Source of the DNA: Candidatus Aldehydirespiratoraceae bacterium
Lineage (GTDB): Bacteria > Actinomycetota > Acidimicrobiia > Acidimicrobiales > Aldehydirespiratoraceae
Direction: 5' to 3'
Assembly: GCA_965214565.1 (NCBI GenBank)
Contig: OZ243951.1
Location: 1,281,017 to 1,345,016, forward strand
DNA: 64,000 nt
In this document: positions 28,115-54,972 of the stretch, one piece after another
How positions within the stretch are numbered: position 1 is the first letter of the stretch
Layout of the letters: every line of letters starts with the position of its first letter
The notes under the pieces: model-generated
Databases searched by the model: none
What the model saw: only the letters and a program-made list of their open reading frames with translations
What the model was told of the DNA's origin: nothing
Position numbers and translations under genes: made by a program

Positions 28115-28147
28115 CACCCTGAGCCGCCGAGATTCGATCACTAAGTT

Positions 28148-28202: not shown

Positions 28203-28220
28203 GCATGTGCACTAAAGCCG

Positions 28221-36338: not shown

Positions 36339-36506
36339 CGCTGCTCCGTTCCGGTGTCGGCTTCTCGCGTTTCGCCGACTGTTGTCGAATCTACCGCTTA
36401 TGCGCTCAACATTCAGAACTATGGGCGCTTGATGCCCTCGATTCTGGGTTGTCCGACGGGATGCACCGGTTCAGGCTGTGGCGAGCCGCTCCCTGCTGAC
36501 CGATCG

Positions 36507-36570
36507 GTGACTTACGTGCGCCACCGTAACACCAAAACCATTCAGAGACTATCGAATCAGACCAACAGCG
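36507..36570 (+). repeat. Partial copy of the conserved leader element found upstream of the small coiled-coil genes
   Basis: 'gtgacttacgtgcgccaccgtaacaccaaaaccattcagagactatcgaatcagaccaacagcg' closely matches the reverse complement of about 47950-48020 and also 43085-43150. It ends 1 nt before the recombinase stop codon. Confidence 0.6.
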
Positions 36571-36571
36571 A

Positions 36572-37633
36572 TTAGGAAGGAGGGAGTACGAAGTCTGCCC
36601 ATCGCTGCATCACTTCGCGCCTGCGCTCGATCAGGTCTGAGCGTTGGTAGCTTCTCTCGGTGCTGTTGCCGACGACGTGACCCAGACACGCTTCTGCGAG
36701 GTCACGTTCGAGGCCTTGGTCTGCGCAGTAGGTGCGGAATGTCGATCTGAGACCATGGGTGGTGCCTTCGCCGAGTATCTGCTTGCGGACTGTCCTCAAC
36801 GAGTCGCTGTTGATTGCCTGATGAGGGTTGCGTGAAGCAGGGAACACAAACTCAGAGTCTCCGAGCGACGCATGGAACCTGGCCCCGCTTGTCCCGTGTC
36901 CCTTCCCGTAGAGAAGTTCCATGGCTTGGTTGCTCAGCGGTACTCTGTGCTCTGTTCTCGTCTTCGTGCGCTCTGCGGGTACGGTCCAGGTCCTCTCTTC
37001 GCGATCGATCTCCTCCCAACGCGCTCCGCTGGCTTCTTTCGCCCTGGTGGCAGTCAGGAGAATGAACAGCAGGGCTCGCCCTGACCCTCCTTTGTCTCGC
37101 AGACGTGCCGAGAGTTGTTCAGCAACCTCTCGGGCCTCGGGCCAGGGTGTATAGGGATGATGAGTGGGCCTGTAGATCAAGTCTCGTCTCTTCATGCCGC
37201 GCATCACAGCAGAGCCGGCAGCAGGATTGGCTTCTATGGCTCCTGCGAGCATTGCTTCATCGAGGACTTCTCTAATGTTCGACAGAATCTTCTTCGGAAC
37301 GCTGATTCCACCGTTTTTCGAGGCCGCGAGGGCATCGAGGACGTGACCCAGCGTTATGGTCTCGATGGGCATTGACCACAACGTTCCGGCATAGGTCCGC
37401 ATCCTTACTTCCCATTCTGTCCGCGTCTTCTCGGCACATACCTTGACGGCGAGGGTGTGAGTCGCCCACGATCCGAAGGTGCCTGACTCAGGAGCGGACT
37501 CAGGGACTTCTTGATTGTCGGTTGGGGCCGTATCGCGCTCCGTCATTGCGCCCGATGGGGGTCGCTGGCCTTCACTGAAGGCATGCCTTCCATTTGGCAG
37601 ATTCTCAATATCTGTCCATTGTTTTGCTACCAT
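36572..37633 (-). CDS. Tyrosine site-specific recombinase (phage-integrase family)
   Basis: 353 aa. Catalytic signature residues are present: R in 'LLTATRAKEAS', K in 'TKTRTEHRVPL', HxxR in 'HGLRSTFRT', H in 'CLGHVVG' and Y in 'ERSYQRSD'. SD 'aaggag' lies 7 nt before the ATG. Confidence 0.85.
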   Translation of the reverse strand: MVAKQWTDIENLPNGRHAFSEGQRPPSGAMTERDTAPTDNQEVPESAPESGTFGSWATHTLAVKVCAEKTRTEWEVRMRTYAGTLWSMPIETITLGHVLDALAASKNGGISVPKKILSNIREVLDEAMLAGAIEANPAAGSAVMRGMKRRDLIYRPTHHPYTPWPEAREVAEQLSARLRDKGGSGRALLFILLTATRAKEASGARWEEIDREERTWTVPAERTKTRTEHRVPLSNQAMELLYGKGHGTSGARFHASLGDSEFVFPASRNPHQAINSDSLRTVRKQILGEGTTHGLRSTFRTYCADQGLERDLAEACLGHVVGNSTERSYQRSDLIERRREVMQRWADFVLPPS

Positions 37634-37690
37634 ATTGTGCTCCTTCTGGGAGGTATCCGGTAATCAACACCAATACCTAAAGCAGCGTTC

Positions 37691-40600
37691 ATGGCGAACG
37701 CCTACGCGGCGCTCACTGGGATGGAGGCACCGGTCGAGGAGCACATGTTCGAAGATGTTGAGGGTGACCCCAACGCTGATGACATTGCTCGTATCAGCCC
37801 GAACGGGCTTGAGATCACGACGGGCACGTCGGCTACGACGTATTCGCCGGGTGACCCTGTGCTTCGCGGGCACATGGCTCTGTTCTTGACACGTCTGTAC
37901 AAGGCGGTGACGGGTGAGGACGCTCCGGCGGGCGACACTCCGTTCACCGACATCGGCGACCGTCCCGACTCGGAGCAGGCCGCGATCGGTTCGCTGTTCG
38001 AGTTGGAGGTCACGCGGGGCACTTCGACTACGACGTATTCGCCGCACAGCAATGTGACACGCGAGCAGATGGCTTCGTTTGTTGCTCGTATGTATCGGGC
38101 GATTGATGAGATGCCTGATCCAACTGAGGCACCGGGAGCTCCGACCGGTGTCATGGCAACACCGCACGGCACCGCAGGTACAGCGCTCGAGGTCACTTGG
38201 TCCGCCCCCGAAGACTCGGGCACCAGTGATGTCACTGGTTATGTCGTGCAGTGGGGTGCCGACTACAACAGCCAGCAGACCACCTCGGAAACCTCAGCCG
38301 CGATCTTCGGCCTCACCAAGGGCATGGACTACAGCGTCCGTGTAGCGGCGGTGAGCGACGACGGCCAGGGCGAGTGGGCGATGGCTACCGGCACGCCGGG
38401 CACCACGCCAGGGATGGTCTCCGATCTCAGGGCAGAACCTGGTGCGAGTCCCGGGACTATCAATGTCATGTGGACCGCACCCGCGGACGATGGTGGCACT
38501 CCGCTTACCGGATACATGATTCTGTGGGCTCAAGGCAACAACGAGCAGCAGTCCATGACGATCAGCAATCCAGGCGCTACCAGTTACACCCTCAGTGGAC
38601 TGAACAGCGCGGGGCTCTACTACGTGTGGGTCAAAGCAGTCAACGGTGCTGGCGACGGCGAAGCCTCCGCTGCCGCCTCAGCCACCCCGACCGGGAACGT
38701 TCCAAGCGGAACCGTCAAGGTCAACCCAACCAGCGGCAACGACGCCGGAAAGCGCTTCGCGTCGATGAGTTGGCCAACCGTGACAGCCAAAGCCGGTCAG
38801 GGTCTGGACAACTACACAATCCAACGCAAGTGCGGAAGCCAACTGTGGCCAGACGCAATCATCCCCAATGACGTTTCTCGTATTGTCATGCAGGATGCTG
38901 TCACCACCGCTGCCAACCAGGTACTCCCTGTAGACCATGCCTTGCTCGGCGGACCAGTCGGATCGGGCACGCTGATCAACGGGGTTGAGTGCACCTACCG
39001 AGTCCGAGCCAACGTCTACACTAATACAAACGGCAATGATCGCCAGGATTCCGGCGAGCCGAACGTAGGTGTGTGGGTTGAAGGCAAAGCCACACCAGCG
39101 GCCTCCACAGCGGCACCCGCTCCAGGGGTCGATGTGGTTCCAGCGGCCCCAGAGGGTGTAGGCGTTATCGCAGGTAACCGGACCATGCAGGTCAACTGGA
39201 CCCTCGTACCCGCCACGAGCCAGGGTACCGGTGGTTCGATCAGCGGATACAGGGTTACCTTGTTCTCGCCGTTCCCAGTGCCCGTGGCTTCCGTAACTGT
39301 CAGTGCTATCACCGAATCACACATGTTCACGGGCCTGACCAACGGTTGGACATACACCGCTAACGTCGTCGCTCTTAACCCCAAGGGCGCTGGCGCTTCG
39401 AACGATGTCACCGCGCAGGCTGCCATGGGGATCCCCGGGGCCGCGCAAGGCGCGCCGACCAACGTGCGTGTCACGCAAGGCACGACACGGGGCACAACGT
39501 TGAAGGTCGCCTGGAACGCTCCAGCGGCTAACAGCCTCGCAACAGTGACCGGCTACACCTTGCAGTGGCGTATCTCAGCCACCGCGAGAGCCGCCGCCGG
39601 TGGTTGGGCAGACACCTCGACCACGCCACCGGGTGGGGAATTGATGCCAACATCGGCCATGGTTGAAGTTGCAGGGCTCACCGCAGGTACGTCCTACGAC
39701 TTCCGGGTCCGGGCCACAGGCACCAGGCCTAATCCGGACTCGCCTGGAAGTACCCTCGATGCGACCGGTCCTTGGAGCGCCGTTGCTTCAGGAGCAGCCA
39801 CAGGTTTGCCCGCAGCAGCCACCAACGTTGCGGTGACCGGAAACGACGGCTCGTTGACTCTGGCGTGGACTCCCGCCGACGGTAACGGTTCGGATGTCAC
39901 CAGCTACTCGCTGGTGTACCGCCGTAACGCAGGTGAAGGTTACAACCCGCCGAACACCGTTAGCGTGCCTGCGTCATTGTTGCCGACCAAGACCATCACG
40001 GGACTGACGAACGGTGTCGAATACGAGATCCTTATTACGTCACGCAACGCAAATGGTTCTTCACAGCAACCGGCGAAAACAACAGGCACGCCTGAGGGCG
40101 GAGGCGGTAGCCTCGCAGCTCCGTCCTCGGTAAAGGCGACGGTGGTGCCCGTTGTGAACGCTGACGGCACGATTGGTAGCAACGCGCAGATCAACGTCAG
40201 TTGGAACGCGGTCTCACGAGCTACTGGCTACACCGTCCAATTCCTGCCGGTGCTTAGTAATGCTACTCCACCAGTCCCTGGTAATCCCGCCGACGACAAT
40301 TGGTCATCTGATGGCGTGATGATCGTGCCCAGGACGACCACTGCCGTCATCACCGGTTTGGCATATGACGCCACCTATGTGGTGCGGGTGCGAGCAGCAA
40401 CGCCGCAAGGTCGATGGGGATTCTCGGCGGCGGCTAGAACCGAAAGCGCGCCATCGACAGCACCAAGTGTGAGTGTTGTAAATATTGCTGGAACAACAAC
40501 GCTGCGAGTCAACTGGACTTCGCTCAACGCAATGGATTCCCGGACCCAAGGGGTCACCGGTTACAAGGTGTCTTGGGGACCAACCGAACCAACGGTTCCC

Positions 40601-40774
40601 GGTAACCGCGGTACTGCAACGGTTGCGGCGCCGGCCAATGCCGGAAGCGGGATGCCGATGAGCTACGACATAACCGGGCTCACCGCTATCGGCCAGCCAA
40701 TCCGGGTGACTGTCGCAGCAGTCAACAAGATCGGTGCAGGTGCCCAAGGCATGGGCACCTACCCGTCGTCATAA
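37691..40774 (+). CDS. SLH-Fn3 cassette A: 5'-truncated copy (no promoter-proximal region, signal peptide or first SLH domain)
   Basis: The ORF begins at the internal Met of 'FMANAYA' of paralog C, with no SD upstream. The first 156 aa differ from cassette B at only 4 positions, then a divergent Fn3 array follows. It is probably a silent cassette. Confidence 0.75.
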   Translation: MANAYAALTGMEAPVEEHMFEDVEGDPNADDIARISPNGLEITTGTSATTYSPGDPVLRGHMALFLTRLYKAVTGEDAPAGDTPFTDIGDRPDSEQAAIGSLFELEVTRGTSTTTYSPHSNVTREQMASFVARMYRAIDEMPDPTEAPGAPTGVMATPHGTAGTALEVTWSAPEDSGTSDVTGYVVQWGADYNSQQTTSETSAAIFGLTKGMDYSVRVAAVSDDGQGEWAMATGTPGTTPGMVSDLRAEPGASPGTINVMWTAPADDGGTPLTGYMILWAQGNNEQQSMTISNPGATSYTLSGLNSAGLYYVWVKAVNGAGDGEASAAASATPTGNVPSGTVKVNPTSGNDAGKRFASMSWPTVTAKAGQGLDNYTIQRKCGSQLWPDAIIPNDVSRIVMQDAVTTAANQVLPVDHALLGGPVGSGTLINGVECTYRVRANVYTNTNGNDRQDSGEPNVGVWVEGKATPAASTAAPAPGVDVVPAAPEGVGVIAGNRTMQVNWTLVPATSQGTGGSISGYRVTLFSPFPVPVASVTVSAITESHMFTGLTNGWTYTANVVALNPKGAGASNDVTAQAAMGIPGAAQGAPTNVRVTQGTTRGTTLKVAWNAPAANSLATVTGYTLQWRISATARAAAGGWADTSTTPPGGELMPTSAMVEVAGLTAGTSYDFRVRATGTRPNPDSPGSTLDATGPWSAVASGAATGLPAAATNVAVTGNDGSLTLAWTPADGNGSDVTSYSLVYRRNAGEGYNPPNTVSVPASLLPTKTITGLTNGVEYEILITSRNANGSSQQPAKTTGTPEGGGGSLAAPSSVKATVVPVVNADGTIGSNAQINVSWNAVSRATGYTVQFLPVLSNATPPVPGNPADDNWSSDGVMIVPRTTTAVITGLAYDATYVVRVRAATPQGRWGFSAAARTESAPSTAPSVSVVNIAGTTTLRVNWTSLNAMDSRTQGVTGYKVSWGPTEPTVPGNRGTATVAAPANAGSGMPMSYDITGLTAIGQPIRVTVAAVNKIGAGAQGMGTYPSS

Positions 40775-40909
40775 GTAATACCAAGATGTAGTCGGCTGGC
40801 TCCTGGGCTCTCCGCCGGGCCCAGAGAGCCGCTGGCTACTTAGCTGCAATTGCAACTAAGCATTAGTTCAGAGCCCGAGGTCTTGGCCTCGGGCTCTAAC
40901 TATTTTTCC
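40775..40909 (+). repeat. Conserved ~135-bp 3' element shared by cassettes A, B and C
   Basis: It starts right at the stop codon: 'gtaataccaagatgtagtcggctgg...cttagctgcaattgcaactaag...agagcccgaggtcttggcctcgggctct...ttttt'. Near-identical reverse-complement copies lie at 44099-44236 and 49684-49816. Confidence 0.8.
40870..40907 (+). terminator. Putative intrinsic terminator of cassette A
   Basis: 11-bp stem 'agagcccgagg'/'cctcgggctct' with a 6-nt loop, then 'aacta' and 'ttttt'. Confidence 0.45.
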
Positions 40910-41133
40910 CACGCTCCAACCCTCCACCATGTATTGGAGACCGACCCGGCAGGCCACAAGAACCCACCGGCAAGCGCAGACTTCCAACTCAGCGAAGCGG
41001 ATGCTGGTTTGGCAACAGAAAGTGCGGTCAGGTTCGATCGTCGGCTCGACGGCAAGGAAGACCCCGCCCGCTGCCCCTCACCCGAGTTCGACGGGGCCAG
41101 CCACGACAAGTTCTCCGCGCACAGCTCCTTGAG

Positions 41134-41206
41134 CGCTCCAGGCTGTCCGATCGTGTCGGTGAGGCTGCTGTGGATATCGGTTCGCTGCTGTTCTGTCAGG
41201 ACCAGG
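41134..41206 (-). pseudogene. 5' remnant of a type-2 small coiled-coil gene
   Basis: It encodes 'LVLTEQQRTDIHSSLTDTIGQPGA', matching the N-termini of the 42621-43040 and 48073-48513 products. Homology then stops and the GTG start is replaced. Confidence 0.45.
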
Positions 41207-41212
41207 TTGGTT

Positions 41213-41405
41213 CCCCCGTCCAATCCACCTGGTCGATTCAGGGGGCAAGTGGTGTACGAGCCTCACCGTAGCACCAAAACTATTCAGAGGCACTCGAATC
41301 AAATAAGAGCAGCCGACGCGCCGTCTGGGGTGGTACGGTGGAGGCACTCGCTGGGCAATGGCGACAACTTCCCTTCACAAGCAGCGACAACGAAGGGAAC
41401 TTGCC
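41213..41405 (+). promoter_or_regulatory. Conserved ~190-bp leader/promoter element, copy 1
   Basis: 'ccgtccaatccacctggtcgattcaggggg...caccgtagcaccaaaactattcagagg...aatggcgacaacttccc...acgaagggaacttgcc' directly precedes the ATG at 41406. Confidence 0.55.
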
Positions 41406-41813
41406 ATGGCGGCAGGCGAGCAGGAGCGTTTTGAGCTCCTCAACAGTTTGATCGAAGCGCTCGGGGAGGATGTGGCCTACAAACTCATGAACTCACTACC
41501 CCCATTCTCCTGGGACCAGGTCGCTACCAAAGAAGACCTCAACACACTGGCCACAGCGATCACCGCGAAGTTCGACCAAGTCGACGCACAATTCAAGTCC
41601 GTCAACGCACAGTTCGAGATGGTTGCGGCGGAGTTCGTGAACCTGCGCGGAGAGATCGCCAAAGAGGTCGCAGGTCTATCGACCAAGATCGGCGTGCTCG
41701 ACAGCAGCTTCTCCAAGAAGATCACCGACCAGACCCGAATCATGGTGACGATGATCGCCGGGTTCTCGTTATCCGTGTGCGCAGCCATGGCCGGCGGCAT
41801 CCTCTTCGCCTGA
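41406..41813 (+). CDS. Type-1 small tail-anchored coiled-coil protein (DUF1640/CCDC90-like by resemblance)
   Basis: 'MAAGEQERFELLNSLIEALGED...WDQVATKEDLNTLA...AQFKSVNAQFEMVAAEF...' with a C-terminal TM 'MVTMIAGFSLSVCAAMAGGILFA'. SD-like 'gaaggg' lies upstream. Confidence 0.65.
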   Translation: MAAGEQERFELLNSLIEALGEDVAYKLMNSLPPFSWDQVATKEDLNTLATAITAKFDQVDAQFKSVNAQFEMVAAEFVNLRGEIAKEVAGLSTKIGVLDSSFSKKITDQTRIMVTMIAGFSLSVCAAMAGGILFA

Positions 41814-41838
41814 CACCCGACCGGAGGGCCGGGGACTG

Positions 41839-42029
41839 CCCATCCAATCCGTCTGGTCGATTCAGGGGAAAGTGGATTACAGGCATCACCGTGACACCAA
41901 AGCCATTCAGAGGCCCCCGAATCAAATTACAGCTGCCAACACACTTTCTTGGTGATACGGTACGGGGTACTCGCTGCGCAATGGCGACAACTTCCCTCCA
42001 CAAGCAGCTACAACGAAGGGAACCTTGCC
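41839..42029 (+). promoter_or_regulatory. Conserved leader/promoter element, copy 2
   Basis: 'cccatccaatccgtctggtcgattcaggggaaagtgg...caccgtgacaccaaagccattcagagg...' precedes the ATG at 42030. Confidence 0.55.
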
Positions 42030-42500
42030 ATGACGGCAGGCGAGCAGGAGCGATTCGGGCTCCTCAACAGTTTCATCGAAGCGCTCGGAGAGGAAGCGGC
42101 CCACAAATTCATGGATGTCCTACCCCCATTCTCCTGGGACCAGGTCGCAACCAAAGACGACCTCAACGCCCTAGCCACGTCGATCACCGCGAAGTTCGAC
42201 CAAGTCGACGCACAATTCAAGTCCGTCAACGCACAGTTCGAGTCGGTCAACGCACAGTTCGAGATGGTCAACGCACAGTTCGAGATGGTTGCGGCGGAGT
42301 TCGTGAACCTGCGCGGAGAGATCGCCAAGGTCGAGGGCAACCTCGCCAAAGAGATCGCAGGGCTCTCGACCAAGATCGGTGAACTCGACAGCAGCTTCTC
42401 CAAGAAGATCACCGATCAGACTCGAATCATGGTGACGATGATCGCCGGGTTCTCGTTGTCCGTGTGCGCAGCCATGGCCGGCGGCATCCTCTTCGCCTGA
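42030..42500 (+). CDS. Type-1 small tail-anchored coiled-coil protein (longest heptad array)
   Basis: 'MTAGEQERFGLLNSFIEALGEE...' with four tandem 21-bp units at 42210-42293 (FKSVNAQ/FESVNAQ/FEMVNAQ/FEMVAAE). The C-terminal TM is identical to the 41406 copy. Confidence 0.65.
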   Translation: MTAGEQERFGLLNSFIEALGEEAAHKFMDVLPPFSWDQVATKDDLNALATSITAKFDQVDAQFKSVNAQFESVNAQFEMVNAQFEMVAAEFVNLRGEIAKVEGNLAKEIAGLSTKIGELDSSFSKKITDQTRIMVTMIAGFSLSVCAAMAGGILFA

Positions 42501-42620
42501 TACCCGACCGGAGGCCAGTGGACTGCTAATGGTCCCAGACATCGGGATCAGGGCCCCTCTTGGGTGGCGTAGATGCGCCAGCCGAGGAAATGGGGCTCTT
42601 CGGTGCGGGGAGACGAAGCC

Positions 42621-43040
42621 TCAGACGGCTAGGAAGATCGAGCCGCAGATGGAGACGGTCATCACCGCGATTGCCACGGCGAACCCCCAAACCTCTCTGC
42701 TGCGTCTTTCGGACAATTCGGCGAATCGCGTGTCGACCTTCGCGAATCGGGTGTCGATCGCCGCGAATCGGGTGTCGATCGCCGCGAACTGCTTCTGGAT
42801 CTCCGCGAACTGCTCTGCGAGTTGTTCGCGGAGCTGCGCGAACTGGACATCCATCTTGGCGTTGAGTGCGACGAATCCAGCCTGGGTCTTGGTCTCGAGG
42901 TCTGCGAGGTCGCGTTTGGTGGCGAACTGTTCCCATCCTCCTGGTGGTTGCTGTGCCATTAGGAATTCCGCTTCCGGCTGCCCGATCGTGTCGGCAAGGC
43001 TGCTGTAGATGTCGGTTCGCTGCTGTTCTGTCAGGGCCAC
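42621..43040 (-). CDS. Type-2 small tail-anchored coiled-coil protein
   Basis: GTG start, 'MALTEQQRTDIYSSLADTIGQPEAEF...ATKRDLADLETK...FAAIDTRFAAIDTRFAKVDTRFAELSER' and a C-terminal TM 'AVAIAVMTVSICGSIFLAV'. Confidence 0.65.
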   Translation of the reverse strand: MALTEQQRTDIYSSLADTIGQPEAEFLMAQQPPGGWEQFATKRDLADLETKTQAGFVALNAKMDVQFAQLREQLAEQFAEIQKQFAAIDTRFAAIDTRFAKVDTRFAELSERRSREVWGFAVAIAVMTVSICGSIFLAV

Positions 43041-43241
43041 TTCGGTCCCCCATCCAATCCGTCTGGTTGATTCTGGGGGAAGTGGCTAACGGGGGCCACC
43101 GTAACACCAAAGCCATTCAGAGACAACCGAATCAGACCAACAGCGCTCAACGCACCGTACGGATGATACGGTACGGGGGTACTCGCTGCGCAATGGCGAC
43201 AACTTCCCTCCACAAGCAGCTACAACGAAGGGAACCTTGCC
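43041..43241. promoter_or_regulatory. Conserved leader element, copy 3 (divergent intergenic region type-2 <-> type-1)
   Basis: A 201-bp spacer between divergent starts at 43040 and 43242. It is near-identical to the reverse complement of 47873-48072. Confidence 0.6.
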
Positions 43242-43635
43242 ATGACGGCAGGCGAGCAGGAGCGATTCGGGCTCCTCAACAGTTTGATCGAAGCGCTCGG
43301 AGAGGATGCGGCCCACAAACTCATGGATGCCCTACCTCCAGTATCTTGGGATCAGGTCGCAACTAAAGACGACCTCAACGCCCTGGCCACAGCGATCACC
43401 GCGAAGTTCGACCAAGTCGACGCACAATTCAAGTCCGTCAACGCACAGTTCGAGTCGGTCAACGCACAGTTCGAGATGGTTGCGGCGGGGTTCGTGAACC
43501 TGCGCGGAGAGATCGCCAAAGAGGTTGCGGGGATATCCAAGAAGATCACCGACCAGACTCGAATCATGGTGACGATGATCGCCGGGTTCTCGTTATCCGT
43601 GCGCAGCCATGGCCGGCGGCATCCTCTTCGCCTGA
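43242..43635 (+). pseudogene. Type-1 small coiled-coil gene with 2-bp deletion frameshift in the TM-coding end
   Basis: '...ttatccgtgcgcagccatgg...' here versus 'ttatccgtgtgcgcagccatgg' in the 41406 copy. The frame therefore runs on to 43982 and the ancestral stop lies at 43633-43635. Confidence 0.6.
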
Positions 43636-43688
43636 CCAACACCGGCTTGCGGTTCTTTGAGAGGCGATATGCTCCGCGGGCACCGCGT

Positions 43689-43832
43689 TGCCTCGACGCC
43701 CCAAAGAACCACGGATCGTTTGTGCACATCACGCTCCATCGGCAAAGTCTCGTTCTCCCGCAACCGCACCAACTCAGCGCGCTCATCGGTGCTCAACCCA
43801 CCAGCACGTTCGGCGACATCGCGGCGCATCCA
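43689..43832 (-). mobile_element. Remnant of an IS3-family transposase OrfA
   Basis: The minus-strand translation 'WMRRDVAERAGGLSTDERAELVRLRENETLPMERDVHKRSVVLWGVEA' resembles the leucine-zipper/frameshift region of IS3 OrfA (...ELxRLRxENxxLxxERDILKKAxAFF). No intact transposase or terminal repeats are seen. Confidence 0.45.
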
Positions 43833-43842
43833 ATTCCCCACG

Positions 43843-44091
43843 TCGATCACTGCGAAGTTCGACCAAGTCGCCGTCCAGTTCACCGCGGTGGCGGCAGAGC
43901 TCGTGAGCGAGCGCGGAGAATTCGCCAAAGTCGAGGGCAACCTCACCAAAGAGATCGCAGGGCTATCGACCAAGATCGGTGAACTCGACAGCAGCTTCTT
44001 CGAAAGGACCCCCGAACAGACCCGAACCTTGATACTGATGTTGGCGGGCTTCTCGGTGGCCGTGTGCGCCACCATGGTGCTTTCTGGTTGA
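43843..44091 (+). pseudogene. 3' fragment of a divergent type-1 small coiled-coil gene
   Basis: 'ITAKFDQVAVQFTAVAAELVSERGEFAKVEGNLTKEIAGLSTKIGELDSSF...LAGFSVAVCATMVLSG'. The 5' part is replaced by the IS3 scrap. Confidence 0.45.
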
Positions 44092-44098
44092 GGGGGTC

Positions 44099-44236
44099 AG
44101 GAAAAATAGTTAGAGCCCGAGGCCAAGACCTCGGGCTCTGAACTAATGCTTAGTTGCAATTGCAGCTAAGTAGCCGGCGGCTCGCTGGGCCCGGCGGAGA
44201 GCCCAGGAACCAGCCGACTACATCTTGGTATTTTCC
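44099..44236 (-). repeat. Conserved 3' element of cassette B
   Basis: Reverse complement of the 40775-40909 element with few mismatches. Confidence 0.8.
44102..44139 (-). terminator. Putative intrinsic terminator of cassette B
   Basis: Stem 44112-44122/44129-44139 ('agagcccgagg'/'cctcgggctct') and a T-tract on the minus strand (44102-44106). Confidence 0.45.
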
Positions 44237-47200: not shown

Positions 47201-47455
47201 TGCAATGTCGTCAGCGTTGGGGTCACCCTCAACATCTTCGAACATGTGCTCCTCGACCGGCGCCTCCATCCCAGTGAGCACCGCGTAGGCGTTCGCCATG
47301 AACCCGCTGAGATGGCACTCAACGCTTTCCTGCTGGCCGTGCACCAACGTTTCGCGACGTGTCCGACGGTTACAGGTCCCTCGGACCATTCTCTCGGCTG
47401 GCGAATCTACGCGACCCAAGCGGGTCTCGATCCCGAAGTCTGGGGCCTTCAGCAC
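44237..47455 (-). CDS. SLH-Fn3 cassette B: 5'-truncated copy; homology to C starts at 47302, upstream 51 codons are unrelated
   Basis: The ORF N-terminus 'MLKAPDFGIETRL...ECHLSGF' has no signal peptide and no paralog match. From 'MANAYAVLTG' onward it is near-identical to C for about 250 aa (46548-47302 versus 52199-52960), then diverges. Confidence 0.75.
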   Translation of the reverse strand: MLKAPDFGIETRLGRVDSPAERMVRGTCNRRTRRETLVHGQQESVECHLSGFMANAYAVLTGMEAPVEEHMFEDVEGDPNADDIARISPNGLEITTGTSATTYSPGDPVLRGHMALFLTRLYKAATGEDAPAGDTPFTDIGDRPDAEQAAIGSLFELEVTRGTSATTYSPHSNVTREQMASFVARMYRAIDEMPDPTEAPGAPTGVMAAVSGDDGDALDVSWMAPEDSGTSDVTGYVVQWKSGDDDYSEDNQRSVDGMMSMFDGLTKGMTYMFRVAAMSDDGQSDWSDEASGTPATVPGAVSNLKVTAGNKTLSVTWDAPDDGGSTVTGYTVEWRSGREGGEMAEAEGDALGYTITLKKNEGQYLVTVTPMNAVGAGDPASVNPGANTTPTTGKSTAPSGLKLAQMVAADGAVSVTASWSEPSDTGGRDIENYEIRHRFKDRETGSAGDWVPTGDTWTNVILPDPLTAVISSSPIPVPAANYGDTLEVEVRADNLASNTSSDTGLSDAAKASIVPSTVPDKPATPMIGVANNSLQVSWTASSKANDGGSAVTGYKVSYSSGGPSTTVSVGADTTTRTLTGLDKRFTYSVTVKAVNANGDSPASDAASGSPAQVPAAPTNLRVVVPPAFEADGTTPNADRATSLDVSWSAPPNNGTSAVTGYRVQQRTSFIPGMNGAADTPAGDWASATTEPAASPITASTTKVTITGLPKGVPHDVRVQAVNDSDPDTDGVQLDPGGPYATVSATPATVPSAVATINLATGYRSLTVNWSPAENNGSKVTHYLLRYADATTNQGRWSSDIRVDASKSPLVHVLTGLRADTNYVVQVRAVNGIGTGPYHDADGSAEGIQDPSAATGGVPSAPSNVTAVSKKDGDGSALTVTWSRVTASNGGGPLMVYVAETSSDGFTWGAATLNCDLATTEATETCSNNVTKGEISDLTAGSDYYVRVAAMANVVGSYGYSAKVTATAVPASPSGLEVAYDATAKGLKVTWTALSGDAAKALTGGYRLHWFPSVAGAPGDTGVATIPDGTSGSYVITGISFTPGNIYSVRLHALNSVGASGGIVATAEAIPAS

Positions 47456-47476
47456 TCCCCAGTCTTGGTTCGGGTG

Positions 47477-47872
47477 TCAGGCGAAGAGGATCCCGCCGGC
47501 CATGGCTGCGCAGACGGCTAGCGAGAACCCGCCGATCATTGTCACCATGATCCGAGTCTGGTCGGTGATTTTCTTGGATATGCCCGCGATCTCTTTGGCG
47601 ATCTCTCCGCGCAGACTCACAAACTCCGCAGCCACCATCTCGAACTTCGCGTTGACCGACTCGAATTGTGCGTTGACGGACTTGAATTGTGCGTCGACTT
47701 GGTCGAATTTCGCGGTGATCGCTGTGGCCAGCGTGTTTAGGTCGTCTTTAGTTGCGACCTGATCCCAAGATACTGGAGGTAGCGAGTCCATGAGTTTGTG
47801 GGCCACATCCTCTCCGAGCGCTTCGATCAAACCGTTGAGGAGCTCAAAACGCTCCTGCTCGCCTACCGCCAT
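47477..47872 (-). CDS. Type-1 small tail-anchored coiled-coil protein
   Basis: 'MAVGEQERFELLNGLIEALGED...FKSVNAQFESVNAKFEMVAAEF...MVTMIGGFSLAVCAAMAGGILFA'. I prefer the ATG at 47872, which sits behind the same leader as the other copies. Confidence 0.65.
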   Translation of the reverse strand: MAVGEQERFELLNGLIEALGEDVAHKLMDSLPPVSWDQVATKDDLNTLATAITAKFDQVDAQFKSVNAQFESVNAKFEMVAAEFVSLRGEIAKEIAGISKKITDQTRIMVTMIGGFSLAVCAAMAGGILFA

Positions 47873-48072
47873 GGCAAGTTCCCTTTCGTTGTAGTAGCTG
47901 GTGGAGGGAAAGTTGTCGCCATCGCGCAGCGAGTACACGCACAATATCATCCGCACGCCGACTTGGGCGCTATTGGTCTGATTCAATCGTCTCTGAATGG
48001 TTTTGGTGTTACGGTGACGCCGGTAAGTCACTTCCCCCCGAATCGACCAGACGGATTGGATGGGGTACCGAA
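47873..48072. promoter_or_regulatory. Conserved leader element, copy 4 (inverted relative to copy 3)
   Basis: A 200-bp divergent spacer between starts at 47872 (-) and 48073 (+). Confidence 0.6.
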
Positions 48073-48513
48073 GTGACCCTTACAGAACAGCAGAGAACCG
48101 ATATCTACAACAGCCTCGCCGACACGACCAGACAGCCGGGAGCGGAGTTCCTAATGGCACAGCAACCACCAGGAGGATGGGAACAGCTTGCCACCAAACG
48201 CGACCTCGCAGACCTCGAGACCAAGACCCAGGCCGCATTCGTCGAACACCGAGCCGCGCTAGTCGCGTTCAACGCCAAGATGGACCTCCAGTTCGCGCAG
48301 CTCCGCGAACAACTCGCTGAGCAGTTCGCGGAGATCCAGAAGCAGTTCGCGACGATCGACACCCGATTCGCTGCGATCGACACTCGGTTCGCGAAGGTCG
48401 ACACACGATTCGCCGAGTTGTCTGAGAGGCGCAGCAAAGAAGTTTGGGCGATCGCCGTAGCGATCGCAGTGATGACCGTTTCCATCTGCGGCTCAATCTT
48501 CCTGGCCGTCTGA
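48073..48513 (+). CDS. Type-2 small tail-anchored coiled-coil protein
   Basis: GTG start, 'MTLTEQQRTDIYNSLADTTRQPGAEF...FATIDTRFAAIDTRFAKVDTRFAELSER...AIAVAIAVMTVSICGSIFLAV'. Confidence 0.65.
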   Translation: MTLTEQQRTDIYNSLADTTRQPGAEFLMAQQPPGGWEQLATKRDLADLETKTQAAFVEHRAALVAFNAKMDLQFAQLREQLAEQFAEIQKQFATIDTRFAAIDTRFAKVDTRFAELSERRSKEVWAIAVAIAVMTVSICGSIFLAV

Positions 48514-48641
48514 GGTCCCCGCAACCGCAGCCAGAGCTTTCGGTTACAGGCGGAATGTCTAGGCGGAGGCTACTGACACAATGCCGACGTATAGTATGTC
48601 ATTAGACCGACGTAAACCTAGACGAGGAAGGACGATTACAG

Positions 48642-48977
48642 ATGGCCACGGTCGCAACTCTGTTGGATCACCTCTACGAGGGGGATGTGCTTGATGCCGT
48701 TGATCTGGCTCGGATCACAAAGACCAATCCTCGAAGTGTGTCCAGGTGGCGGTCTGAGGCGACAACTCCTAGGCGGGCCGCGGAGGACCTTCTGCTTGAA
48801 CTGCGAGCCGTCGTTGATCTGGCCCGTACCGTGATGAACGATGATGCAGCGAGATTCTGGCTGCGTTCGCCCAACCGCGACCTCGGATACAAGAAGCCAC
48901 TGGAACTCATAGCGGAGGGTGAGTACCGGCGGGTTGTCGACCTCCTGCTGGCACTGGCGGAGGGCGTCACTGCATAA
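48642..48977 (+). CDS. Xre/MbcA/ParS-type antitoxin (DUF2384)
   Basis: 111 aa with 'ARFWLRSPNRDLGYKKPLELIAEGEYRRVVDLLLALAEG', typical of the antitoxin partner of RES toxins. Its stop lies 1 nt before the RES ORF start. Confidence 0.75.
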   Translation: MATVATLLDHLYEGDVLDAVDLARITKTNPRSVSRWRSEATTPRRAAEDLLLELRAVVDLARTVMNDDAARFWLRSPNRDLGYKKPLELIAEGEYRRVVDLLLALAEGVTA

Positions 48978-48978
48978 G

Positions 48979-49516
48979 ATGTTCGACATTGAAGCAAACG
49001 TGGCGGGGAGCGTGGCCGCGCGTCCGTTGTCAGTTGTTGGGTTCCGGAACCAAGCGATGGGTTTCGGCAATCCTCTGAGCGGTGAGGGCGCACGGCGGTT
49101 TGGTGGGCGCTTCAACCCACCGCAGAGCTACGCCGTCGTCTAACTCTGCACGACACTGGAGTGCTCGGCCGCTGAACTCCTTCGGCAGTCGAAAGGACAA
49201 GGCATTGCGCTGGAGGCGCTTCTTCCCCGCGTGCTTTGGCGGATCGAAGGCCAACTGAGCAGGGTTCTCGACCTCCTAGACGAGGCAACGCTCGAGATGC
49301 CCGGTGTAGGACGAGATTGACCTGATTCGAGATGACCTGACTCTTACCCGCCAAATCGGCGAATCCGCGTATGAGCATCAGTTCCAAGCTGTCTTGGCCC
49401 CGTCAGCAACAGGGGTCGATCAAGTGATTGCCGTCTTCACCGACAACCTCGCTGGAGCGGTTCTCGACCCAACACTGATCGGAGAATGGAAAGATCCGCG
49501 GAAACTTCCCTCCTGA
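48979..49516 (+). pseudogene. RES-domain toxin gene inactivated by an in-frame stop and a frameshift
   Basis: '...GGRFNPPQSYAVV*LCTTLECSAAELLRQ...': a TAA at 49141-49143 interrupts the typical 'GGRxNPPG...YL' region. The C-terminal part ('LTRQIGESAYEHQFQAVLAPSATGVDQVIAVF') continues in another frame to 49516. Confidence 0.65.
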
Positions 49517-49683
49517 AGCGTTTGGTTCATCTACGAGCGGAGCTGCCCGCATACCAGACGCGCCGCCTCGATATGCTGTTCGACCGTTGATCAGCGGTGT
49601 CGTCGGTGGGTGTCAGAGCTAGATCTCAAGACGCAACCAGCTTGGACCCATGGTGACCGGTCAACGGGGCAGTCACCCATGCG

Positions 49684-49816
49684 GAAAAATAGTTAGAGCC
49701 CGAGGCCAAGACCTCGGGCTCTGAACTAATGCTTAGTTGCAATTGCAGCTAAGTAGCCGGCGGCTCGCTGGGCCCGGCGGAGAGCCCAGGAGCCAGCCAA
49801 CTACATCTTGTATTAC
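49684..49816 (-). repeat. Conserved 3' element of paralog C
   Basis: Near-identical to 44099-44236. Confidence 0.8.
49685..49722 (-). terminator. Putative intrinsic terminator of paralog C
   Basis: Stem 49695-49705/49712-49722 plus a T-tract on the minus strand (49685-49689). Confidence 0.45.
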
Positions 49817-52800
49817 TTATGACGACGCTGGTGTCAGCGTAACGGCGTCGCTCCCGTCAGTAGCCATACCAACACCGATCTTGTTGACCGGGGCTACCGT
49901 CACCGTGATGCTCTGGCCGAATGCGGTCAGGCCGGTGATGTCGTAGCTCGTGGCGTCAGCCGCAACAGTCGCACTGCCACGGTTACCCACCACCTGTGTC
50001 GCCGTCGGGTACCAGGTCACCAGGTAACCGGTCACACCTTCGGTGCGGGCATTTGTCGGTGCGGTCCAGGCCACCCTCAGCGTTGTTGTCTTATCGACTT
50101 GGCTGAAGCTGGTGATGACTGGTGCCGTTGCCGGAGTGCTCTCCGCCTTGACTGGAGCAGAGAACCCTGGAGTGCCTAGCAGTGCGCGACCAGCGGATTT
50201 TCCACCCACCGTTCCTTGCGTCACGGCTTGGACCCGCACCACATAAGTGGTTCCCTCATCCAAACCACCGATGGTTACCTTCCTAGCCTTGGCGGCATCG
50301 AACGTAGCAAGATCATCGGTACCGACCTGCTTGACGGCCGCTCCTGTAATGCTCGTTGGATCCACAGTCATCCAACCGCCCTTGGGGTTACTTGTAGTGG
50401 AAATGTACTGAACTTGGTAACCAACTGCGTTGGCTACTGCCGACCAAGTGACGTCAATCATCCTTCCATCGGTGTTCATGGTCGCCGATGGCACGGCTGT
50501 CACGGAACGAGGTGCGGCCATGGCGTGCGTGGGCCTGTCGATGCCGTCCGTTTCAACCTCACCAGAGGAGCCGACCGCGTTGACCGCAGTGATCCCGACT
50601 ACGTAAGGCACACCATTTGACAAGCCAGTGATTGTCTTGGTCGGCAAAGCTGAGGCGTTAACGCGTCCCGCGGACATCCAGCGTTCGATGCCCTGTACGT
50701 TGCGGGCGTACCGCACGTTGTAATGGGTGACATCGTTGCCCTTGCCTACCGCTGGGGTCCAAGTCAGTGTAAGTGACCCGCTGCCTGGAATAATCTCGAT
50801 GTTGGCAACGTTGACCTTTCCTGGCAGAGCTGCGGCAGCAATCCCCGACGCCCATGCGCTCCACGGGCCATTACCGGAAGCGTTAATCGCCCTAACTCGG
50901 TAGTCGAACGATGTGCCCCTCTCCTCCTCAAGAATAGGGGCGTTATACATCGTGCCGGTGCCTGCGTGATCGGTGATCACCGGACCCGGGACACCAGGTG
51001 TGGGGTCGGTTGGGCTTGTCACGGTGGCCCGACGTTGCAGCGCATAACCGGTCACGGTGCCGGTGCCGTTGTTTGCGGGGGCGCTCCAAGTGACGATCAA
51101 CACATTTCCTCGGTTGTCAGCTTGGCCTGGCGCAGGTGCTGGCGGCTGCGACACTCGTATGGTGCTTGGTGCCGCGGGTACTGCGGCTGGAGTCCTCCCA
51201 GCAGGAGTGGTTCCTGCGGCTTCACTTGCACCCCTAGCGTTGATCGCTTCGATCGTGACGGTGTACTGCAACCCGTTGGTCAAACCCGTGATCGTGTACG
51301 AACTTGAGGTGGCGGGAACCGTGGTATCGCCGATCGGTGCCGTTGCCGGAGAAGCCCACGCAATCTTGTATCCGGTGATCGCAGTGCCCCCGTCGTTCAC
51401 CTTGGGAGGTGTGTCGGTTGTCATGGGTGCAGTCCATGTGACATTCAGCGACCCGTTGGCAACTTCGGCATCGACGGTTGCCGGCATCCCTGGAGCACCC
51501 AGCGGAGTACCCGTTCCCGTGACCCAAGCACCTTCGAGTGTAGGTTCATCGGCGTCTTGCTGCTTAGCGGTGTTGCCGTCTGTGGCCCGGTCGAAATAGG
51601 TGTTGGCCCGAACGCGGTAGGTGCACTCTTCCCCGTTAGCAAGCGAGCCACCGAGCAGTTCACTACGTTCTGCAAACTGAACAGCGACAGCGATCTCAGG
51701 TGGGAGTTGTGTGTCAGTACGGTCACCGTCATCCGTATGGGTTGCAGGCCATGTCTGCTTTCCGCACTTGCGTTGGATGTCGTAGTTAAGAACGTTCTGT
51801 CCTCTTCCGAGTGTGGGGGTCGGCCACGAAACGGCCTTAAACACACCGCCTGTGGCGAAAGCGGTATCCGCTGGTCCAGGCAACACAACCCTGACAGTTC
51901 CAGAACTAACCGACGTGGTAGGCGCAACAGCAGCCTGACCGGAATCGGCCGGGGCGGTGATCGCACCATCACCGGCACCATTTACTGCCTGGATGTGCAC
52001 GCGATATGAAACACCGGTCTTCAAGCCAGTGATGGTGTACGACGTGGCAGAACCGTCATTGATCATCGCCGTGTCTGGGGCATTACGGCCTGTAGCCCAC
52101 TGGACCACATAACCGGTGATCGGCGTGCCGCCGTCATCGGCGGGGGCTGCCCAAGACAGGTTCAAGGTGCCCGACGCCGCACCAACAGCCACGGCGAAGT
52201 TGCTCACCGCACCCGGCACGGTGCCAGGTGTGCCGGAGGCTTCGTCGGACCAGTCGCTTTGGCCGTCGTCGCTCATTGCGGCGACACGGAACATGTAGGC
52301 GGTGCCCTTGGTGAGACCATCGAACATCGACATCATGCCGTCGACTGACCGCTGATTGTCCTCAGAATAGTCGCCGCCGCCGGACTTCCATTGAACGACA
52401 TAACCAGACACATCTGAAGTGCCGCTGTCCTCAGGAGCCATCCAAGACACGTCGAGCGCGTCTCCGTCGTCGCCGCTGACCGCCACTTCAACACCGGTCG
52501 GAGCTCCCGGAGCCTCAGCTGGATCAGGCATCTCATCAATCGCCCGATACATACGAGCAACAAACGAAGCCATCTGCTCGCGTGTCACGTTGCCGTGCGG
52601 CGCGTAGGTGGTATCTGAAGTACCCCGCGTCACACCCAGCGCAAACAGCGAACCGATCGCGGCCTGCTCTGCGTCGGGACGGTCACCAATATCGGTGAAC
52701 GGAGTGTCGCCCGCCGGAGCGTCCTCACCCGTCGCCGCCTTGTACAGACGCGTCAAGAACAGAGCCATGTGCCCGCGACGCACAGGATCACCAGGCGAAT

Positions 52801-53269
52801 ACGTCGTAACCGACGTGCCCTGCGTGATCATCAACCCGTTAGGACTGATCCGCGCAATGTCATCAGCGTTGGGGTCACCCTCAACATCTTCGAACATGTG
52901 CTCCTCGACCGGCGCCTCCATCCCAGTGAGCACCGCGTAGGCATTCGCCATGAACGCCGCCATCTCAGAACGGGTCATGTCGTCGCCAGGACGGTACATG
53001 TCACCAGCATCGGAGATGCCCAGCTGTCGCAGGCATCGACTGTCGTCATAGGCAAAGCTGGATTCGGGTACATCCGAATAGGCCATCTCGCCGTCCGATG
53101 GGCACGATCCGCCGCTGGACTGCGCGGTCGCTGCGACCGTGGCCAAACCGAGACTGCCCGCGACGACGACAAAGGCCACCGCCATGCGCACTAGGCGAAG
53201 GACGCTCAACCGACTCGATCGGCTGGGCACCTTCACCGGCACTCCCTTTCCCGTTACTGCTGAACTCAT
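49817..53269 (-). CDS. SLH-Fn3 cell-surface protein, paralog C (full length; candidate expression locus)
   Basis: 1150 aa with signal peptide 'LVRMAVAFVVVAGSLGLATVAATAQ', three SLH segments and an Fn3 array. RBS 'ggag' lies before the ATG. Only this copy joins the shared 5' block to a secretion signal. Confidence 0.85.
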   Translation of the reverse strand: MSSAVTGKGVPVKVPSRSSRLSVLRLVRMAVAFVVVAGSLGLATVAATAQSSGGSCPSDGEMAYSDVPESSFAYDDSRCLRQLGISDAGDMYRPGDDMTRSEMAAFMANAYAVLTGMEAPVEEHMFEDVEGDPNADDIARISPNGLMITQGTSVTTYSPGDPVRRGHMALFLTRLYKAATGEDAPAGDTPFTDIGDRPDAEQAAIGSLFALGVTRGTSDTTYAPHGNVTREQMASFVARMYRAIDEMPDPAEAPGAPTGVEVAVSGDDGDALDVSWMAPEDSGTSDVSGYVVQWKSGGGDYSEDNQRSVDGMMSMFDGLTKGTAYMFRVAAMSDDGQSDWSDEASGTPGTVPGAVSNFAVAVGAASGTLNLSWAAPADDGGTPITGYVVQWATGRNAPDTAMINDGSATSYTITGLKTGVSYRVHIQAVNGAGDGAITAPADSGQAAVAPTTSVSSGTVRVVLPGPADTAFATGGVFKAVSWPTPTLGRGQNVLNYDIQRKCGKQTWPATHTDDGDRTDTQLPPEIAVAVQFAERSELLGGSLANGEECTYRVRANTYFDRATDGNTAKQQDADEPTLEGAWVTGTGTPLGAPGMPATVDAEVANGSLNVTWTAPMTTDTPPKVNDGGTAITGYKIAWASPATAPIGDTTVPATSSSYTITGLTNGLQYTVTIEAINARGASEAAGTTPAGRTPAAVPAAPSTIRVSQPPAPAPGQADNRGNVLIVTWSAPANNGTGTVTGYALQRRATVTSPTDPTPGVPGPVITDHAGTGTMYNAPILEEERGTSFDYRVRAINASGNGPWSAWASGIAAAALPGKVNVANIEIIPGSGSLTLTWTPAVGKGNDVTHYNVRYARNVQGIERWMSAGRVNASALPTKTITGLSNGVPYVVGITAVNAVGSSGEVETDGIDRPTHAMAAPRSVTAVPSATMNTDGRMIDVTWSAVANAVGYQVQYISTTSNPKGGWMTVDPTSITGAAVKQVGTDDLATFDAAKARKVTIGGLDEGTTYVVRVQAVTQGTVGGKSAGRALLGTPGFSAPVKAESTPATAPVITSFSQVDKTTTLRVAWTAPTNARTEGVTGYLVTWYPTATQVVGNRGSATVAADATSYDITGLTAFGQSITVTVAPVNKIGVGMATDGSDAVTLTPASS

Positions 53270-53713
53270 TGCTGCTCCATTCTTGGTTGGATTGTCTGGC
53301 TCTTCGCAGACGCCAGTCGAAATCTAGCGGTTATCCGCACCCGGCACCTTGCTGGGACACAGAAAACACCAATCGCGATCGGCATGCAAAGGTTAGCGCA
53401 GGCCGTTTTCTAACACAACCCACCCCCCGAGTCAACGACACAGGGGTTGGAAGAGGCGTCAGAAACGAATGGTGTCGGTCTAAAACCGCACATGTATTCA
53501 AGGCCCTCAGCATAACGCCACAATCAATAGCGCGCCATGCTTTCCCGGACTACTTGATGCACTGGGCCTCTTGTGGGGTTGCACAGAGCGGGGCGGGGGC
53601 TCGACTGAGGGGCGTTACGCTCGGTAGCGGCGGCCCGCCAGCCGCCACGGGGCCCACGGTTTCGGGCCCTGTGTCCCGTACGTTTGGCTGTCCCCCGACC
53701 CCATGGAAGCACC

Positions 53714-54322: not shown

Positions 54323-54407
54323 GCCGGAGTTGAGCCGATCCGGCTGGACGGGGGCGACAACTTCCGTGGATCGACAAGGTGTAATGGTTGCAACTGCTGT
54401 CAGCGCA

Positions 54408-54498
54408 GCCAGTCCTCCGCGACGCACGGGTGGCGGCCAGGTGGTCAGGGTCGTGTCACTAACGCTCAGGCCAGTCCTCCGCGACGCACGGGTGGCGG
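54408..54498 (+). repeat. Two perfect 29-bp direct repeats separated by 33 bp
   Basis: 'gccagtcctccgcgacgcacgggtggcgg' occurs at 54408-54436 and 54470-54498. Confidence 0.7.
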
Positions 54499-54943: not shown

Positions 54944-54972
54944 TTCACCCAGTTAGCTCAGCGCTCACCCAG

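Follow-up and report, generated by a model that had tools for sequence, protein, structure and literature searches.

A candidate switching locus for surface proteins was found in a 64,000-nucleotide (nt) stretch of DNA, in the following called the window, from an uncultured Candidatus Aldehydirespiratoraceae bacterium of the order Acidimicrobiales (assembly GCA_965214565.1, contig OZ243951.1, positions 1,281,017 to 1,345,016 of the forward strand). At this locus three genes for proteins with SLH and Fn3 domains lie next to a gene for a tyrosine recombinase of the integrase type. We regard the locus, with reasonable confidence, as a cassette-switching system for a wall-anchored SLH-Fn3 surface protein in which the integrase is the most likely catalyst. 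Taken separately, the exchange of cassettes by inversion is highly probable, and on the role of the integrase as the catalyst the scales stand about level. Inversion had been proposed in an earlier note on this DNA, and comparative data from related genomes support it. The close homologues used for comparison were drawn from ENA or NCBI and derive from metagenome-assembled genomes of Acidimicrobiales, mostly labelled Candidatus Aldehydirespiratoraceae; stretches of these genomes carry L numbers and proteins P numbers. L002 and L085 (sample ERZ25069191) denote one locus, as do L081 and L086 (ERZ25070985), L083 and L084 come from one sample (ERZ25071132), and L001 together with L005 represents OZ242337.

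The shared parts of the three genes, A (37691-40774, plus strand), B (44237-47302, minus strand) and C (49817-53269, minus strand), were mapped by repeat finding and self-BLAST of the window, and Pfam assigned SLH domains and seven Fn3 stretches to each of them. All three share a 5' block which encodes the second and third SLH domains (SLH2 and SLH3). The copies of A and B constitute an inverted repeat (I1, 37687-38157 versus 46833-47303, 471 nt, 97% complementary, 8,675 nt between the arms), and those of A and C a second one (I2, 37682-38151 versus 52491-52960, 470 nt, 91%, 14,339 nt between the arms), so that A is inverted relative to both other genes, as originally described. B and C are direct repeats with a longer common stretch (46544-47307 versus 52196-52960, 91%) that extends through the first Fn3 domain; B is a mosaic whose block resembles that of A and whose first Fn3 domain resembles that of C. 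A 3' element of 133 nt follows right behind each stop codon (Table 1), with 97-98% identity between the copies, and the Fn3 arrays between block and 3' element share only 34-45% protein identity. The earlier description of a shared 5' block, a common 3' element and divergent arrays is thus borne out by these measurements.

The homology of A, B and C begins at one common nucleotide, and A and B start at GTTCATGGCGAAC, in agreement with the claim that both begin at the same internal codon. Moreover, the 15-mer motif GTTCATGGCGAAYGC occurs three times in the 64 kb, once in each cassette, where 0.44 occurrences would be expected by chance; owing to the common start nucleotide and the confinement of the motif to the three cassettes, the observation is real and far beyond chance. 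The palindrome GCGTTC-ATGGC-GAACGC straddles this homology boundary. When the first 103 residues of C, comprising the signal peptide and the first SLH domain (SLH1), were searched by tblastn, they matched C itself and, weakly, the paralogue D (32868-36338), with no match at A or B. In the N-terminus of C, a charged n-region and the hydrophobic stretch MAVAFVVVAGSLGLATVAATA precede SLH1, and a ribosome-binding site (GGAG, 53278-53275) is located 5 nt ahead of the ATG. Among the three genes it is therefore C alone that combines a ribosome-binding site, a signal peptide and SLH1, as had been stated. A and B are silent because this 5' part is missing, and they are silent cassettes, not pseudogenes. 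With its signal peptide, three SLH repeats and subsequent domain array, C fits an SLH-anchored surface protein of the S-layer type. The region upstream of C is conserved at the expression sites of relatives (90% in L005 9148-10464, 88.6% in L004 1716-2738), and the N-terminus of C is 95% identical in L004 and nearly the same in P0255 of L085. A sigma-70 scan returned no promoter sites, a scan that is uninformative for an actinobacterium.

Table 1. Features of the SLH-Fn3 cassette locus (positions within the window; aa, amino acids).
Feature	Position	Strand	Remarks
Expression-site upstream region	53270..53700	-	Between the Fe/Mn superoxide dismutase gene and C; presumed promoter and 5' untranslated region, ribosome-binding site read
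Unique 5' part of C, signal peptide and SLH1 (aa 1-103)	52961..53269	-	Expression site only; tblastn and translation
C copy of the 5' block (SLH2-SLH3)	52491..52960	-	Arm of the 14-kb inverted repeat with A
C-type Fn3 array	49817..52490	-	Currently expressed array by position; Pfam
C 3' element	49683..49814	-	Three predicted hairpins, the last a predicted intrinsic terminator
A copy of the 5' block	37685..38157	+	Homology from GTTCATGGCGAAC (37687), in the last helix of the would-be SLH1
A-type Fn3 array	38158..40774	+	Silent cassette; reading frame intact, signal peptide absent
A 3' element	40777..40909	+	
B copy of the 5' block	46833..47303	-	97% to that of A; likeness to C extends to 46544
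B-type Fn3 array	44237..46832	-	Silent cassette, direct orientation relative to C
B 3' element	44100..44232	-	
P4-like tyrosine integrase	36572..37633	-	Divergent from A; catalytic domain present, arm-binding domain deleted in frame
Integrase-cassette spacer, 53 nt	37634..37686	.	Contains the integrase ribosome-binding site; partly conserved in relatives
Segment between the convergent A and B 3' elements	40910..44099	.	Five small coiled-coil, C-terminally membrane-anchored genes of two families, with 21-nt repeats
Segment between the B boundary and the C 3' element	47304..49682	.	Small-gene pair 47476-48515 is an inverted 88% copy of 42619-43636

In the mechanism that we propose, a fixed and a mobile part of the gene would be distinguished. 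The fixed part would be the one expression site beside the superoxide dismutase (SOD) gene, which would provide promoter, ribosome-binding site, signal peptide and SLH1 (53700-52961). The mobile part would begin at the codon 'FMANAY' and would comprise SLH2-3, about seven Fn3 domains and the structured terminator, with three such cassettes in the window. Reciprocal recombination of inverted 5' blocks (14.3 kb for A x C, 8.7 kb for A x B) would invert the DNA in between and swap the array behind the expression site, and the segment between the 3' elements of A and B would be carried along in these inversions. Judging from the geometry of the repeats, B would reach expression only by a two-step route, an A x B inversion followed by recombination of the A site with C. 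In addition, the inverted 3' elements may serve as a second set of recombination joints. The P4-type integrase, finally, is envisaged to act at or near the boundary sequence, that is, the palindrome and approximately the next 50 nt.

The architecture of the locus recurs in related genomes. Seven further assemblies (L002/L085, L003, L004, L081/L086, L082, L083, L084) feature an integrase which is 65-94% identical to that of the window and divergent from a truncated SLH-Fn3 gene, at an integrase-cassette distance of 57-62 nt (spacer measured in L002, L004 and L081-L084). The truncated cassettes of these relatives start at the same nucleotide as A and B, and the integrase-adjacent genes encode 974-1073 aa where the open reading frame (ORF) is intact; it is broken in L082, a 4x contig. 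The position of the integrase between cassette and D is orthologous in all genomes, and in the window as well as in L004, L005 and L085 the expression site keeps its place next to the SOD gene. A minimal form of the locus is present in L004, where the order is SOD, full gene (+), small gene, truncated gene (-), integrase (+, 65% identity), small genes and D. Its inverted repeat spans 567 nt at 95% identity, the first 420 nt being 100% identical, and its two 3' elements are 98.6% identical.

The nearest genome is OZ242337, whose flanking genes show 93-95% nucleotide identity to those of the window. Truncated cassettes are missing from it, and only 226 aa are left of its integrase, next to a fragment of the insertion sequence (IS) ISL3. 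The earlier note had counted it against switching if related strains kept the arrangement and had no recombinase; in the sole close relative that lacks silent cassettes, the integrase is broken too. In OZ242337 (L001 1-10000, L005 13270-20510), small coiled-coil genes, an rve-type transposase, the ISL3 fragment and a remnant of an SLH-Fn3 N-terminus (L001 6104-6265) fill about 17 kb at the position of the silent cassettes, and a second complete A-type gene (L005_b) is inserted elsewhere. A protein search with the N-terminal 146 aa of C yielded only fragments of 88-247 aa and no full-length proteins. As a further observation, sample ERZ25071132 contains the locus both on a 40-kb contig at 15x coverage and on a 2.26-Mb chromosome at 47x. 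Over the 21 kb that were compared the two are collinear, with 99.6% identity; the 40-kb contig may represent a coexisting strain or a structural haplotype that differs beyond this stretch.

A comparison of arrangements among close relatives, as recommended in the earlier note, revealed the same array at both kinds of site, which is what the inversion model predicts. Array A, silent in the window, has 65-71% protein identity to expressed arrays in L004, L005 and L010. The one in L005 (L005_a) occupies the orthologous expression site, its flanks being 90-94% identical to window positions 53851-58129. Array C, which is expressed in the window, has 66% protein (75% nucleotide) identity to the silent, integrase-adjacent array of L002.

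Sister genomes present this exchange at much closer range, their D genes being 97.4% identical (L002 versus L081). The genes of L085 are arranged as SOD (-), X (1180 aa, +), Y (1137 aa, +), a small gene (-), Z (1039 aa, truncated, -) and integrase (+), while in L081/L086 X adjoins the integrase with Y behind it, and the two are inverted with respect to the integrase; L083 and L084 are in the same state as L081. The stretch 6621-13424 of L086 corresponds to 10314-17126 of L085 at 98.3% nucleotide identity, the match begins exactly at the boundary, and the integrase flank has the opposite orientation. At the protein level P0135 (1071 aa) equals P0255 (1180 aa) from M107 'MANAY' onwards at 96% identity, and the first 106 residues of P0255 represent a signal peptide and SLH1, almost as in C of the window. 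The 3' element behind Y in L086 is itself a recombinant, Y-like in its upstream and Z-like in its downstream part, the expected product of recombination between two convergent 3' elements. Hence, alternative arrangements exist between sister genomes, and their breakpoints lie at the repeats. A further pair, L086 and L082, stems from different samples and has identical integrase proteins; here a 6.4-kb small-gene segment (98.6%) is in opposite orientation to the integrase flank, and the integrase-adjacent arrays differ. Cassette Q of L082 was considered as the reciprocal partner of cassette E of L086 and was rejected, the two being only about 70-74% alike. Given this low likeness and the broken frames of the 4x contig L082, the pair supports inversion and does not provide a clean reciprocal pair. 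In addition, the last ~400 nt of Y and a degenerate 3' element are found just past the integrase stop codon in L002 11309-11805 (L085 22702-23198), 89% identical to L002 5352-5853; this copy appears to be what remains of an earlier rearrangement whose breakpoint fell within an array.

The arrays that now reside at silent sites have been under purifying selection. When silent arrays were compared with their expressed counterparts, the ratio of non-synonymous to synonymous substitution rates (dN/dS) amounted to 0.40 for the A type (versus L005_a; dS 0.42) and to 0.35 for the C type (dS 0.64), and the paralogue D, which is always complete, gave 0.27-0.33. The proximity of these values to those of D indicates selection at the protein level for most of the history of the arrays and fits periodic expression. 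Moreover, every silent cassette of adequate assembly depth has an uninterrupted reading frame between the boundary and the stop codon.

The recombinase encoded at the locus comprises the domains Phage_integrase (6e-16) and Phage_int_M, belongs to the P4 genomic-island type (PRK09692, phrog_1) and is about 30% identical to proteobacterial phage integrases; its start codon lies 53 nt from the boundary motif. A search of the PDB gave no relative of the integrase. Its closest homologues, P0001, P0002 and P0003 (85%, 83% and 65% identity), measure 412-422 aa and carry an N-terminal Arm-DNA-bind_3 domain. The window integrase shares the first ~22 residues with these homologues and then lacks 59 aa (177 nt, in frame), which correspond to Arm-DNA-bind_3 (PF13356). 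Its catalytic region reads complete: the motifs TATRAKE, ERTKTR, HGLRSTFR, LGHVV and RSYQRSD are readable, and the residues R..K..HxxR..H..Y were assigned by eye. The earlier designation of this gene as intact consequently needs qualifying, since the ORF is open and the catalytic region is kept but the arm-binding domain present in the orthologues is gone.

Three side observations concern the integrase and its surroundings. Between the integrase genes of L085 (21394-22632) and L086 (5321-6559) there are 24 non-synonymous and 6 synonymous changes. Right after the stop codon of the window integrase, a 64-nt element (36507-36570) matches sequences upstream of small coiled-coil genes (43082-43145, 89%; 47968-48031, inverted, 91%), and because relatives carry small coiled-coil genes between integrase and D, it looks like a deletion scar. 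In the distant Acidimicrobiaceae locus L018 (244-2977), a different integrase (28% to P0002) is located by a small coiled-coil gene and a complete D-like SLH-Fn3 gene, and the contig ends at the integrase.

The positions of the crossovers bear on the question of the catalyst. Within a genome the blocks are 91-100% identical, whereas between genomes the mean is about 75-80% (63-95% per 60-nt window), and this contrast indicates that exchange inside genomes is ongoing. The blocks of X and Z in L085 are 77-92% alike save for their first ~45-60 nt, which are nearly identical, and the joint that tells X of L085 from X of L086 falls within this stretch, about 45 nt past the boundary. Between L086 and L082, divergence begins at the boundary motif itself. 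On the basis of these joint positions and the fixed position of the integrase, we favour a process that is site-directed near the boundary.

Several observations weigh against an integrase-driven switch, and a number of them would suit a rival explanation, namely that the cassettes are exchanged by RecA-type homologous recombination or gene conversion and that the integrase either takes no part or is left over from the first truncation event. The repeats, at 470-770 nt, are far longer than a tyrosine recombinase needs; this length, the two joint positions near the 5' boundary and the occurrence of joints in the 3' element are just as compatible with homologous recombination or gene conversion. 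The homogenisation of the blocks over hundreds of nt, as in L004, and the mosaic nature of B also speak for the rival. The integrase of the window is devoid of the arm-binding domain and that of a close relative is broken; moreover, the dN/dS of the integrase is 1.26 (L085 versus L086, from only 30 changes) and that of the neighbouring D 0.33, which is odd for a constrained enzyme, and we know of no P4-type integrase that acts as a dedicated invertase. As to the genomic comparisons, the alternative states were seen between genomes from different samples and not inside one population, L082 is a 4x contig with broken ORFs, and the cassette content differs between sister genomes (the L081 region has no Z, and the likeness of E and Q is only ~70-74%), so that more than one event separates them. 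Furthermore, many related species possess tandem full-length paralogues with the same 3' element and small genes and no integrase. On the other hand, even lineages whose integrases share as little as 65% identity have retained a full-length integrase ORF at a fixed 57-62 nt from the boundary, and the integrase is degraded in the one genome that lost its silent cassettes. In L085, moreover, where the two blocks offer RecA a poor substrate, the joint nevertheless falls within the short, nearly identical piece beside the boundary. We therefore consider exchange by homologous recombination alone a serious but rather unlikely explanation. If cassette switching by the integrase is preferred, the arm-less enzyme of the window presumably still works, and switching would take place within a population.

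Two further explanations appear improbable. The mere persistence of A and B as decaying leftovers of duplication or rearrangement in a fast-evolving cluster, with no programmed switching, would agree with the abundance of IS elements and rearrangements in this region of relatives and with the tandem complete paralogues of many related species. It is, however, very hard to reconcile with silent cassettes that stay open over ~3 kb, with a dN/dS of 0.35-0.40 over a dS of 0.4-0.6, with truncation at the same nucleotide in all genomes, with blocks that are identical or nearly so within genomes, and with the presence of the same array at the expression site in one genome and at a silent site in another. 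Scarcely more probable is a mobile element whose integrase brings in promoter-less cassettes, integrates at the boundary and displaces the old array, in which case diversity would mainly result from horizontal transfer. The P4 genomic-island type of the enzyme, the arm domain of its orthologues, its distant relationship to phage integrases and its abutment on the boundary, like that of an integrase on an att site, would all be in line with such an element; the same applies to the differing cassette repertoires of sister genomes and to the conservation across species of the 5' block and 3' element, which could be universal adaptors. Integration would, however, leave direct repeats with the integrase between the copies, whereas every genome has an inverted truncated copy with the integrase outside the segment; in addition, the 64-kb window contains no tRNA gene, the boundary motif is found only at the three cassettes, and the integrase is in orthologous position in all genomes. 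For the lack of a tRNA gene and of an extra motif copy, and for the wrong geometry, an origin of the window arrangement as an integrated element was rejected, and the concern raised earlier that the recombinase might belong to an unrelated element does not fit the locus.

A more far-reaching version of the integrase-driven switch can be put forward only as a tentative and somewhat doubtful proposal. A P4-type integrase might have been domesticated as an invertase of the surface coat in marine and sponge-associated Acidimicrobiales, with the 3' element and the SLH2-3 block as universal adaptors. Arrays would be not only inverted but also traded between strains and species as a lineage-wide pool, which would explain the repertoires of the sister genomes, and the enzyme of the window would have shed its arm domain and would now be a simple recombinase.

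Switching of surface proteins by DNA inversion is well known from other bacteria. In Mycoplasma pulmonis, the vsa locus with its recombinase HvsR follows the same logic of an expression site and silent genes that are exchanged by inversion. Campylobacter fetus (sap) and Lactobacillus acidophilus (slpA/slpB) switch surface or S-layer proteins by inversion between homologues with a conserved 5' region, of which one copy is expressed. In C. fetus the promoter is situated on the invertible segment between opposed cassettes, and inversion is mainly RecA-dependent with no dedicated recombinase gene adjacent. The vpma locus of Mycoplasma agalactiae, according to two reports, undergoes site-specific inversions driven by Xer1, with one expression site and silent genes that lack the 5' end (PMC5634654, PMC2268961).

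Like vsa and vpma, the locus described here has a single site with promoter and a 5' end encoding the signal sequence, silent genes devoid of this end, and an adjoining tyrosine recombinase gene. It differs from both in that the enzyme, whose catalysis is predicted, belongs to the P4 integrases and has orthologues that carry an arm domain, instead of being a small Xer-like protein, that the repeat consists of ~470 nt of coding DNA (SLH2-3) instead of a site of ~30 nt, and that the product is a wall-anchored SLH-Fn3 protein of an actinobacterium and not a lipoprotein. With C. fetus sap and L. acidophilus slpA/slpB it shares the variation of a surface protein by inversion between copies with a common 5' region; unlike in C. 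fetus, the presumed promoter stays in place next to the SOD gene and is not part of the invertible DNA, the silent copies are truncated at the 5' end and the integrase is adjacent. Multiple inverted repeats, a variable C-terminal part behind a constant N-terminal part and a tyrosine recombinase at the edge are reminiscent of the Rci-dependent shufflon of R64 and of hsdS shufflons, though in contrast to R64 whole arrays of 2.6 kb are exchanged, each with its own terminator. Repeat finding in the window detected no 19-bp sfx-like repeat and no family of short repeats besides the long blocks, and since an Rci-type enzyme and sfx repeats are both missing, the locus is not an R64-type shufflon.

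A survey of predicted programmed inversions reported a 2.3-fold enrichment of SLH-domain proteins (Milman et al. 2023, PMC9881135); this is a table entry only, which describes no SLH-Fn3 system, no member of the Acidimicrobiia and no architecture such as the present one. A literature search retrieved no description of this system. In summary, the logic is known from vsa/vpma and C. fetus sap, and the novelty lies in its occurrence in an uncultured actinobacterial lineage.

The 3' element deserves attention of its own. It folds as three hairpins with a z-score of -6.4, the last of which has a GC-rich stem of 12 bp followed by a run of T residues. Among 21 loci that represent at least 15 assemblies (e.g. 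L004, L006, L012 and L013), integrase-free species included, most copies show 93-99% identity, as against about 75% for the coding flanks compared alongside. Of the 46 pairs predicted in the alignment, five feature compensatory changes and almost none is broken. Rfam contains no family that matches this element or anything else between 36.3 and 53.8 kb. As the element also trails tandem complete genes in species without the integrase, its interpretation as a switch-specific site was rejected. The shared element of ~135 bp reported earlier is hence indeed present at all three genes, but it is a family-wide structured terminator not particular to this locus. It is a conserved terminator or structured module of the gene family, which doubles as a homology arm, and it is too conserved for a plain terminator; as such it constitutes a new, strongly conserved structured element that merits annotation.

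If the proposed switching is true, a switchable outer Fn3 coat would be a bet-hedging device like those of Mycoplasma and Campylobacter pathogens, of relevance to the dealings of sponge-associated bacteria with phagocytosis by the host and with phages. Aldehydirespiratoraceae (UBA11606) comprise sponge-associated as well as free-living marine lineages, and Fn3-rich 'eukaryote-like' proteins are reported to be enriched in sponge-associated Actinobacteriota, this family included (PMC11706023). Furthermore, the full-length, arm-less and broken integrases would provide a natural series for the evolution of an integrase into an invertase, and the occurrence of switching can be checked on existing long-read metagenomes.

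The locus is embedded in a cluster of wall-anchored proteins, with the Fe/Mn SOD gene on the far side of C. On the 3' side of the integrase, D encodes a complete paralogue with three SLH domains and an Fn3 part, which has an N-terminus of its own and no nucleotide similarity to the block. Beside D, a gene at 29567-32770 encodes a protein of 1067 aa with two SLH domains and about 22 RCC1 repeats, and nucleotide repeats are found within it at 29768-31715.

Small coiled-coil genes are located at 41358-41813, 41949-42500, 42621-43040, 43242-43620, 43657-44091, 47477-48031 and 48073-48513. Their products of ~140-180 aa fall into two families and end in a C-terminal hydrophobic segment, and 21-nt (heptad) tandem repeats distinguish the copies from each other; in one of them (43242-43982) the stop codon has been lost. 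Genes of this kind sit between SLH-Fn3 genes in many Acidimicrobiia genomes, and their proteins gave only weak matches, to PHROGs of unknown function. Further away, the stretch 26320-28229 contains a gene (26453-28114) whose product combines Schlafen/AlbA_2, HATPase_c_4 and HTH domains, with one copy of a 62-nt direct repeat on either side (26370-26431 and 28141-28202, 92%); because it is absent between the same neighbours, MR_MLE and YaaD, in L001, this gene is probably an insertion.

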